Shown: positions 36,601 through 39,600, numbered from the stretch's first letter. The stretch: 42,776 nt of DNA from a virus (IMGVR_UViG_2874945390_000010:1-42776); one strand, 5' to 3'. Made by a program: the numbers.

Positions 36601-39600
36601 AATGCGGCTAAGCGCACGCGGAACAGTTAAAACCAAAAACAGTGTTATGGGTGGATTCTCTGTATCCGGCGTTAATTGTTAACTGGTTAACGTCACCTGG
36701 AGGCACCAGGCACCGCATCACAAAACTCATTGTTGAGGGCGCGATAATGAAAACGTTATTACCAAACGTTAATACGTCTGAAGGTTGTTTTGAAATTGGT
36801 GTCACTATCAGTAATCCTGTATTTACTGAAGAGGCCATTAACAAAAGAAAACACGAACGGGAGTTATTAAATAAAGTATGCATTGTTTCAATGCTGGCCC
36901 GTTTACGTCTGATGCCAAAAGGATGTGCACAATGAATCCAGTATTTGCACTTATTCTGACGGTTTTTCTTGTTTCCGGAGAGCCAGTTGATATTGCAGTC
37001 AGTGTTCACAGAACAATGCAGGAATGTATGGCAGCAGCAACCGAACAGAAAATTCCAGGCAACTGTTATCCGGTCGATAAAGTTATTCACCAGGATAATA
37101 ACGAAATCCCGGCAGGATTTTAAAACAGCACCGTAATAAATATCCAGTTTCATTCTTATATGTCAGCAATGGCAGAGATTTGTTCACCCTTAAATCTGTG
37201 ATGAGGTTTATCAATAATGAGCACTGATAAAGAAGAATTTGGGTAATGACTCCAACTTACTGATAGTGTTTTATGTTCAGATAATGCCCGATGACCTTGT
37301 CATGCAGCTCCACCGATTTTGAGAACGACAGTGACTTCCGTCCCAGCCTTGCCAGATGTTGTCTCAGATTCAGATTATGTCGCTCAATGCGCTGAGTGTA
37401 ACGCTTGCTGATAACGTGCAGCTTTCCCTTCAGGCGTGATTCATACAGCGGCCAGCCATCCGTCATCCATACCACGACCTCAAAGGCCGACAGCAGGCTC
37501 AGAAGACGCTCCAGTGTGGCCAGAGTGCGTTCACCGAAGACGTGCGCCACAACCGTCCTCCGTATCCTGTCATACCGTCCTCCGTATCCTGTCATACGCG
37601 TAAAACAGCCAGCGCTGACGTGATTTAGCACCGACGTAGCCCCAATGTTCGTCCATTTCAGCGCAGACAATCACATCACTGCCCGGTTGTATGCGCGAGG
37701 TTACCGACTGCGGCCTGAGTTTTTTAAGTGACGTAAAACCGTGTTGAGGCCAACGCCCATAATGCGTGCACTGGCGCGACATCCGACGCCATTCATGGCC
37801 ATATCAATGATTTTCTGGTGCGTACCGGGCTGAGAGGCGGTGTAAGTGAACTGTAGTTGCCATGTTTTACGGCAATGAGAGCAGAGATAGCGCTGATGTC
37901 CGGCAGTGCTTTTGCCGTTACGCACCACGCCTTCAGTAGCGGAGCAGGAAGGACATCTGATGGAAATGGAAGCCACGCAAGCACCTTAAAATCACCATTA
38001 TACACTAAATCAGTAAGTTGGCAGCATTACCAGAATTTGCACTATATTGCGAAGCAAAAAATGTCAAAGTAAGAAAACGCCTAGGAATTAAAGGTGGTTT
38101 TTACTGGACTACAGCAAAAAAATTATCTGTTGCAATCTCCCGCTGCATTACCGCAATGGATGACAACGATTATGATGAAGACGACTTTAAAAAACCCGTC
38201 CGCGTCAATTTGCCCGTTGTTGACGACCTTCCGCCAGAAGGCGTGTTTGATACTGAATTCTGCAACCGCTATGAAAAAGGCGGGAAAGATGGCATCACAA
38301 TGACATTTATCGGCCCTTCCCCCTCTGTTCAGGACAAATCAGCCAGCACTGATAATACCAACATCAACGGCGAAGACATGACTGAGATTGAGGAGAGCAT
38401 GCTTCTACCTGTCTCCGGTCAGGAACTGCCCATTCGTTGGCTTGCTCAACACGGCAGCGAAAAACCAGTAACGCACGTTTCACGCGACGAACTCCAGGCA
38501 TTACACATTGCACGGGCTGAAGAACTACCGGCTGTTACTGCCCTGGCTATTTCGCATAAAACCAGTCTACTCGACTCGCTGGAGATTCGCGACCTCCACA
38601 AACTGGTTCGTGACACTGACAAAGTTTTCCCTAATCCTGGTAATTCAGACCTGGGACTAATAACTGCTTTTTTCGAAGCATACCTGGACGCTGACTACAC
38701 TGATCGGGGTCTGCTGACAAAAGAGTGGATGAAAGGAAATCGTGTTTCACGCATCACCCGCACGGCTTCCGGTGCTAATGCTGGCGGTGGGAACAAAACC
38801 GATCGCAATCCGAATTTAGTACACACCCTCGACACACTGGATGTGGAGATTGCAGCAGCCACACTTCCGATGGATTTTAATATTTATGAAATTCCGGGCA
38901 GCGTTTATCGTCGCGCAAAAGAAGTAGTCCTGAAAAAAGAAAGTCCGTTCAAAGAATGGTCCGCAGCACTTCGTGCAACCCCGGGTATTCTGGACTATTC
39001 CCGCGCCGCTATTTTTGCACTTATCCGAAGCGCACCCCCTGAATTTTATCACTACCCGGGACGCCTTCAGGGGTATATCAACGCCTATTTGACGGAAACT
39101 GATCACGAGAACCCCAGCAAGGAAACTCTCACAGCTGCCCGGCATACGCCGGAAAAAGATATCCTGGAAAAAATTAACCGCGAGGTGGTTACTGAGCGTG
39201 AAACAGAAGAAGAAAAACCACAACCATCTGACGCAATGGCAGGTGAACAGGCAACAACTGAAACAATGGAACCGGATACAACTGAACATTGCCAGAACGC
39301 GCAGTCGCTGGATGCTCAGTCGCAGGTGAGTTCCGCTAACCAAGTAAAAGTCACCGCTGACGAAGTAAACAAAATTATGCAGGCAGCCAATATCAGCCAG
39401 CCTGACGCCGATAAGTTACTTGCTGTATCGCGTGGTGAATTTGTTGAGGGGATTAGCGACCCTAATGATCCGAAATGGGTCAAGGGGATCCAGACTCGCG
39501 ATTCTGTGAACCAGAACCAGCATGAATCGGAACGGAACGACCAAAAAGCGGAACAAAACAGCCCAAATGCGTTACAAAACGAGCCAGAAACGAAACAATC

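Follow-up and report, generated by a model that had tools for sequence, protein, structure and literature searches.

Insertion of an IS1 element into the 5' end of an exonuclease gene of a Shigella prophage

The viral DNA stretch IMGVR_UViG_2874945390_000010 (42,776 nucleotides, analysed over its whole length and called the window below) carries on its plus strand a prophage exonuclease gene whose first codons are separated from the rest by a copy of the insertion sequence IS1. The locus raises the question of whether the gene has simply been broken, or whether its body, which stays open back into the end of the IS1, is still expressed from a promoter and a start codon brought by the element. 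The simplest answer, an IS1 insertional knockout of the exonuclease gene, is also the one that we favour, with a probability of about 0.88, and the gene is most likely a silent pseudogene, as judged from its sequence.

Reading and scripted analysis of positions 36900–38400 place the IS1 at 37242–38031, a length of 790 bp. It is flanked by two copies of the 8-bp target-site duplication AGAATTTG, the left one at 37234–37241 and the right one at 38032–38039, whereas the uninterrupted homologue described below has this sequence in a single copy. An exact 8-mer at both ends of the element is expected by chance about once in 65,000 cases. Target duplications of IS1 are 8 or 9 bp long (PMC12428005), and a 9-bp duplication was rejected here because the bases flanking the two 8-mer copies differ. 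A scripted scan for the end pattern locates the terminal inverted repeat of the insB end (IRR, GGTAATGACTCCAACTTACTGAT) at 37242–37264 on the plus strand and that of the insA end (IRL, the reverse complement of GGTAATGCTGCCAACTTACTGAT) at 38009–38031 on the minus strand. These 23-bp repeats agree at 20 of 23 positions, and the pattern has only two matches in the 42.8-kb window, namely the two IS1 ends, with 0 expected in shuffled sequences. The GC content in 100-base windows around the insertion site is 34–39%, and the insertion junction reads GATAAAGAAGAATTTGGGTAATGACTCC. The original prediction, a 790-bp IS1 with an 8-bp duplication inserted after codon 8 of the gene, was thus reproduced in all its coordinates and lengths.

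The insertion splits codon 9 of a gene that has 813 codons and starts at ATG 37217. To the left of the element, 37217–37241 on the plus strand holds the native ATG and codons 1–8 (MSTDKEEF) together with the first base of codon 9, and the native reading ATG AGC ACT GAT AAA GAA GAA TTT G continues into the IS1 with GGT TAA, so that the promoter side, the ribosome site and the ATG of the native gene can yield no more than the peptide MSTDKEEFG. To the right, native codons 7–813 and the stop codon are located at 38033–40456 on the plus strand, as defined by Pfam matches and by alignment to the gene of Escherichia coli 4/4, and this gene body has no frameshift or internal stop. Deletion in silico of the IS1 and one copy of the repeat restores an open reading frame (ORF) of 813 amino acids.

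Empty sites are common among E. coli. Of the complete E. coli genomes, 666 match an IS1-free 800-bp junction query along 80% or more of its length, with an identity of up to 99.9%, while the interrupted query is covered to at least 80% in 0 complete E. coli genomes, the collections searched being ones that exclude Shigella. In E. coli 4/4 the uninterrupted gene is annotated by PGAP as 'exonuclease' (WP_001544673.1, 813 amino acids) with the same ATG, and 802 of 807 aligned residues are identical to those encoded in the window. At the nucleotide level this gene, the nearest relative compared in detail, shows 7 differences in 2442, five of them protein-changing and two silent; a reading of this 5:2 ratio as relaxed selection was dropped, because seven unpolarised differences are too few. 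The locus in E. coli 4/4 has the same neighbours in the same order, i.e. dicB, DUF1482/ydfD, DUF4224, integrase, tRNA-Ser and mtfA. It differs in having no IS1 but a frameshifted integrase gene (7079–8129 of the retrieved locus L001), whereas the integrase gene of the window is intact. Related prophages at the tRNA-Ser/mtfA locus therefore bear different lesions, in the exonuclease gene here and in the integrase gene in 4/4.

In our reading, IS1 transposed into the AT-rich beginning of the exonuclease gene, which comes after dicB and ydfD and has their orientation, and a staggered cut of 8 bp parted the ribosome-binding site, ATG and codons 1–8 from codons 9–813. At the 5' end that it now has, the 2.4-kb body lacks a recognisable ribosome site, and it faces the inward-reading promoter of insA. 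The pseudogene should be young, since its body is still intact. Downstream on the same strand are a DUF4224 excisionase-like gene (40515–40718) and a tyrosine integrase gene (40718–41743, 341 amino acids), and as IS1 is polar on downstream genes, any such effect would reach both; transcription into them is probably reduced. IS1 disruption of this kind is already known and belongs in textbooks; the small addition of the present case is a 22-bp duplication that disables the transposase.

That the element is an IS1 follows from its ends, its insA/A6C/insB' layout, its target duplication and its near-identity to annotated copies. It is oriented with its genes on the minus strand, as defined by alignment to an annotated IS1 and by Pfam matches to InsA and DDE_Tnp_IS1, and its insA end, IRL, abuts the exonuclease gene body. 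The insA gene (37701–37976, minus strand, 91 amino acids, PF03811 and PF12759) is intact, and the DDE_Tnp_IS1 domain (PF03400) is found in the overlapping frame that follows it. The motif AAAAAAC (A6C) for programmed -1 frameshifting is located at 37719–37725 on the minus strand, at IS1 position 307 as in the canonical copy. The best matches among 5,426 complete E. coli genomes are 768-bp IS1 copies with 97.1% identity, and in a global alignment to the annotated IS1 of E. coli 23CRST047 the only differences are a 22-bp gap and one substitution, at 37999, with 767 of 768 positions matching. The canonical length of IS1 is 768 bp (PMC12428005), and the copy in the window has 790 bp because of an extra copy of the 22-bp unit ACCGTCCTCCGTATCCTGTCAT, which a script and the alignment show as two perfect tandem copies at 37552–37595, in insB' (junction GTATCCTGTCATACCGTCCTCCGTATCC). 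The duplication is located downstream of the A6C site and shifts the transposase frame into a stop codon, so that the InsAB' frame is not intact and this copy cannot make InsAB' or move on its own; the loss bears on the activity of the element and not on its family membership. The duplication would have arisen after the insertion.

The 22-bp duplication is absent from all other IS1 copies examined, which are 768-bp copies in other genomes. Its junction and the left insertion junction each have 0 matches in the GTDB species-representative genomes, a result that is uninformative on their spread. A 97-residue InsB' fragment was considered as a marker specific for the duplication and rejected, as gene callers report it for ordinary IS1 copies too (22,125 blocks), and 0 of the 10 loci fetched with it carry the duplication. 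A promoter-like CTGCCA-16-TATAAT is found within IRL (37997–38024, minus strand; promoter scan and alignment), directed inward to insA and away from the exonuclease gene, whose strand is the opposite one. The substitution at 37999 converts its -10 from TATGAT to the consensus TATAAT, which might raise the expression of InsA, a repressor. The element thus shares with the 768-bp IS1A/IS1F elements of E. coli and Shigella the 23-bp ends, insA, A6C, the insB' DDE domain, the 8-bp duplication and the AT-rich target, and differs from them in its 790-bp length, its transposase frameshift and its TATAAT -10.

If the gene body were still expressed, both a start codon and a promoter would have to be found at the right end of the IS1. 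The in-frame start-type codons downstream are TTG 38018, ATG 38156, TTG 38210 and GTG 38243, and none of the four is preceded by a Shine-Dalgarno-like sequence. The first in-frame start with such a sequence (AGGAG), at a very short spacing, is ATG 38399, codon 128 of the ORF that begins at TTG 38018. A standard promoter scan, which allows spacers of 16–18 nt, gives no plus-strand site near the right-end junction, but a relaxed scan with spacers of 15–19 nt gives a candidate weak hybrid promoter at 38018–38048 on the plus strand, with a -35 TTGGCA in IRL (38018–38023) and a TATATT in the flank (38043–38048), 19 nt apart.

It is conceivable, if improbable, that this hybrid of IS1 and flank rewires expression. 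Transcription of the truncated exonuclease gene, and of the integrase and excisionase-like genes beyond it, would then be independent of prophage repression, and translation would begin within the gene, for instance at ATG 38156 (native Met48). Several observations do weigh against a simple knockout. An intact, fully open gene body is also expected under continued use, which the seven differences from E. coli 4/4 cannot discriminate. The pair TTGGCA-19-TATATT agrees with the consensus at 10 of 12 positions and is the sole plus-strand candidate of the relaxed scan in 37700–38200, and an equally good -10 would have resulted at only about 1.4% of the hypothetical insertion points within the window. 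In addition, the inverted repeat of IS1 holds an outward-facing -35 from which hybrid promoters can form, as documented in passages of PMC8764528 and PMC9330008 that cite Prentki 1986, and some outward transcription from the present pair may thus occur.

On the other side, the 19-nt spacer is longer than optimal and falls outside 16–18 nt, there is no TG extension, and activation needs an optimally placed -10 (PMC8764528). The hybrid promoters described by Prentki et al. 1986 and that of afaA in E. coli ST131 (PMC8764528) resemble the present arrangement in that the outward -35 of IRL faces a -10-like hexamer in the flank; here, unlike in those cases, the spacer has 19 nt and the insertion is located inside and not upstream of the coding sequence, so that even an active hybrid promoter could not restore the full protein. 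The predicted transcript would start at about 38055, past TTG 38018, and would have to be translated from the codons at 38156, 38210 or 38243, with no ribosome site. We see only a slim chance that a working hybrid promoter switches on a 5'-truncated DexA-like exonuclease, or the genes for the excisionase-like protein and the integrase, in a prophage that is repressed and otherwise defective; if it did, the stability of the prophage or the phage resistance of the Shigella host would change.

A second possibility, less likely again, is a fusion protein starting at TTG 38018, made from a transcript that begins in the IS1 or reads through from the upstream prophage operon. The original prediction that the downstream frame stays open back into the IS1 terminal repeat, with a TTG at 38018, holds: the frame is open from 38009, directly after TAA 38006–38008, TTG 38018 is its first start-type codon, and the ORF list contains a TTG-start ORF at 38018–40456 (812 amino acids), exactly the one called by the gene caller of a public collection. 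A plus-strand promoter-like site matching 9 of 12 positions is also found within the IS1, at 37349–37378. However, the continuation covers only 23 bases of the IS1, an open frame over 7 codons is within chance, and TTG is a poor start codon. The transcript would be untranslated for about 650–800 nt and antisense to insAB', which should favour its termination. Moreover, the TTG of the -35 TTGGCA is the same TTG 38018 that is proposed as start codon, and as the predicted transcript start at about 38055 is downstream of it, the hybrid promoter and the TTG start cannot work together. A functional continuation through the IS1 end is thus not supported, and the open frame into the IS1 is best read as chance, leaving the insertional knockout as the preferred explanation.

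The knockout reading also depends on ATG 37217 being the native start. Near-identical copies cannot test a start codon, and more distant phage relatives were used instead. With the first 172 residues as query in a tblastn search of phage records, alignments starting at residue 1 were obtained in Shigella phage 75/02 Stx, POCJ13, phiSTEC1589-Stx1c and PhiR5_2, with 67–73% identity over the aligned stretch; for 75/02 Stx and PhiR5_2 the identity is about 66% over the first about 140 residues. The first eight residues are MSTDKEEF in the window and MSADKQTF in the phages, giving the pattern MS[TA]DK[EQ][ET]F. A Shine-Dalgarno sequence GAGGT is located at 37203–37207 on the plus strand, 9 nt before the ATG, and is kept in the homologues of the Shiga toxin (Stx) phages. 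DNA similarity between the phages and the window starts at GAGGTTTA, the ribosome site, and runs through the ATG, while the sequences further upstream are unrelated. In addition, position 1 of the NCBIfam RecE profile aligns to residue 1. ATG 37217 is confirmed as the predicted native start, and the eight codons upstream of the IS1 as part of the gene, because the ATG, GAGGT and codons 1–8 are shared by divergent phages with unrelated upstream DNA. That these codons are foreign to the gene and its true start is elsewhere is scarcely credible, since the uninterrupted E. coli gene begins at the equivalent of ATG 37217, the divergent phages keep the start region where the DNA before it cannot be aligned, and the profile alignment begins at its first position; nothing in favour of this reading came to light.

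The interrupted gene had been labelled RecE-like, which fits only the N-terminal part of its product. Residues 1–616 correspond to positions 1–603 of the 877 in the NCBIfam RecE equivalog NF007259, with 946 bits, below the cut-off of 1269, and Pfam Exonuc_VIII (PF06630) is found at residues 57–189 (E = 7e-36). Positions 604–877 of NF007259, the last about 270, which we take to be the RecE nuclease domain, are unmatched in the protein. At residues 632–803 there is instead a match to PF16473, the Rv2179c-like 3'-5' exoribonuclease family, with 228 bits (cut-off 27) and E = 8e-68, covering profile positions 2–177 of 177 and thus a full-length domain. The sole sequence match in the PDB is the 227-residue 'Exodeoxyribonuclease' of 8KEL/8KEN, which aligns to this C-terminal domain with E = 7e-8 and which, from the paper holding that code, is taken to be DexA of phage T4. 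The C-terminal domain (39911–40453) aligns to DexA residues 4–162, including the DxE motif, IDLETMG here and DFETMG in DexA. No recT gene is adjacent, the neighbours being dicB and DUF1482 upstream and DUF4224 and the integrase gene downstream. From these matches the protein is a RecE-type N-terminal part joined to a predicted DEDD-type 3'-5' exonuclease (Rv2179c/DexA-like), and not a RecE orthologue.

With RecE (exodeoxyribonuclease VIII) of the Rac prophage the gene shares the N-terminal match and an early-region location within a lambdoid prophage; it differs in that the RecE nuclease domain is replaced by the Rv2179c-like DEDD domain and in that an excisionase-like gene and an integrase gene follow. 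As phage records name the homologues 'exodeoxyribonuclease VIII', 'RecE-like' is fair as a loose label. The similarity to T4 DexA and its bacterial homologues ('HREX', PMC12153337) is confined to the C-terminal domain and is distant, and unlike in DexA the domain is fused to a RecE-type N-terminal part of about 600 residues. Defence against phages whose DNA contains 5-hydroxymethylcytosine (5hmC) is reported for some bacterial homologues of DexA (PMC12153337, 2025). A defence role is not claimed for the present protein, whose homology to DexA is remote and which has D at the position of DexA D90, where the defensive E. coli protein EcD is set apart by an A (A78).

IS1 copies were also found in the corresponding region of other strains. 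In four other E. coli strains the dicB-ydfD-exonuclease region has been hit independently, by 768-bp IS1 insertions or by deletions bounded by IS1, with the IS1 copies at 3598–4365, 3244–4011, 3001–3768 and 3339–4106 of the retrieved loci L002, L010, L008 and L009, respectively. In strain 300033 the IS1 interrupts the homologous exonuclease gene near codon 74 and is flanked by a 9-bp duplication (CTCGATTCC), and in strain 94EC it lies in ydfD, likewise with a 9-bp duplication (GATAAAGTT), while in the two further strains the copies have no duplications and bound deletions. The region has thus been struck by IS1 repeatedly. An apparent common orientation of the IS1 near the exonuclease gene was discounted, as the search joins only same-strand pieces.

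The window is identical to the chromosome CP026836.1 over the 7,759 bases compared, and this accession is listed as Shigella boydii (PMC12817139). According to a gene-position index the exact 812-residue ORF is present on that contig only. The integrase gene adjoins a tRNA-Ser (cga) gene at 41796–41885 on the minus strand, followed by mtfA, and this tRNA-Ser/mtfA locus is presumably the attachment site of the prophage. At the other end of the window the minus strand encodes the cytolethal distending toxin (CDT) operon at 1–2215, with cdtA at 1388–2215, cdtB at 570–1391 and cdtC at 1–573; the element is a lambdoid prophage carrying cdtABC and hence a CDT-converting prophage. In the tail genes (8108–13949, minus strand) the tape-measure pieces (profile positions 1–331 and 427–815 of 1123) run directly into a piece of the J tail-fibre gene whose match begins at profile position 263; another J piece lies apart from it. 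This suggests an internal deletion of tail genes, and even without the IS1 the prophage is probably defective.

Upstream of the exonuclease gene the small RNA DicF is located at 36521–36572 on the plus strand (Rfam, 76.7 bits), followed by dicB (about 36747–36935) and ydfD, all of them in the orientation of the exonuclease gene; this is the layout of a Qin-type early region. Searches with Rfam and ARAGORN also identified, all on the minus strand, the sok antitoxin RNA (29585–29755), the STnc100 small RNA (25869–26059), the IS009 RNA (2631–2829) and a phage-borne tRNA-Met (26220–26295).

For annotation, the proper entry is a pseudogene, disrupted by IS1, of a prophage 3'-5' exonuclease, and not a protein of 812 amino acids starting at TTG 38018. 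The insertion junction together with the 22-bp duplication could mark this S. boydii lineage, and the locus is a further example of IS1-driven prophage decay in Shigella.

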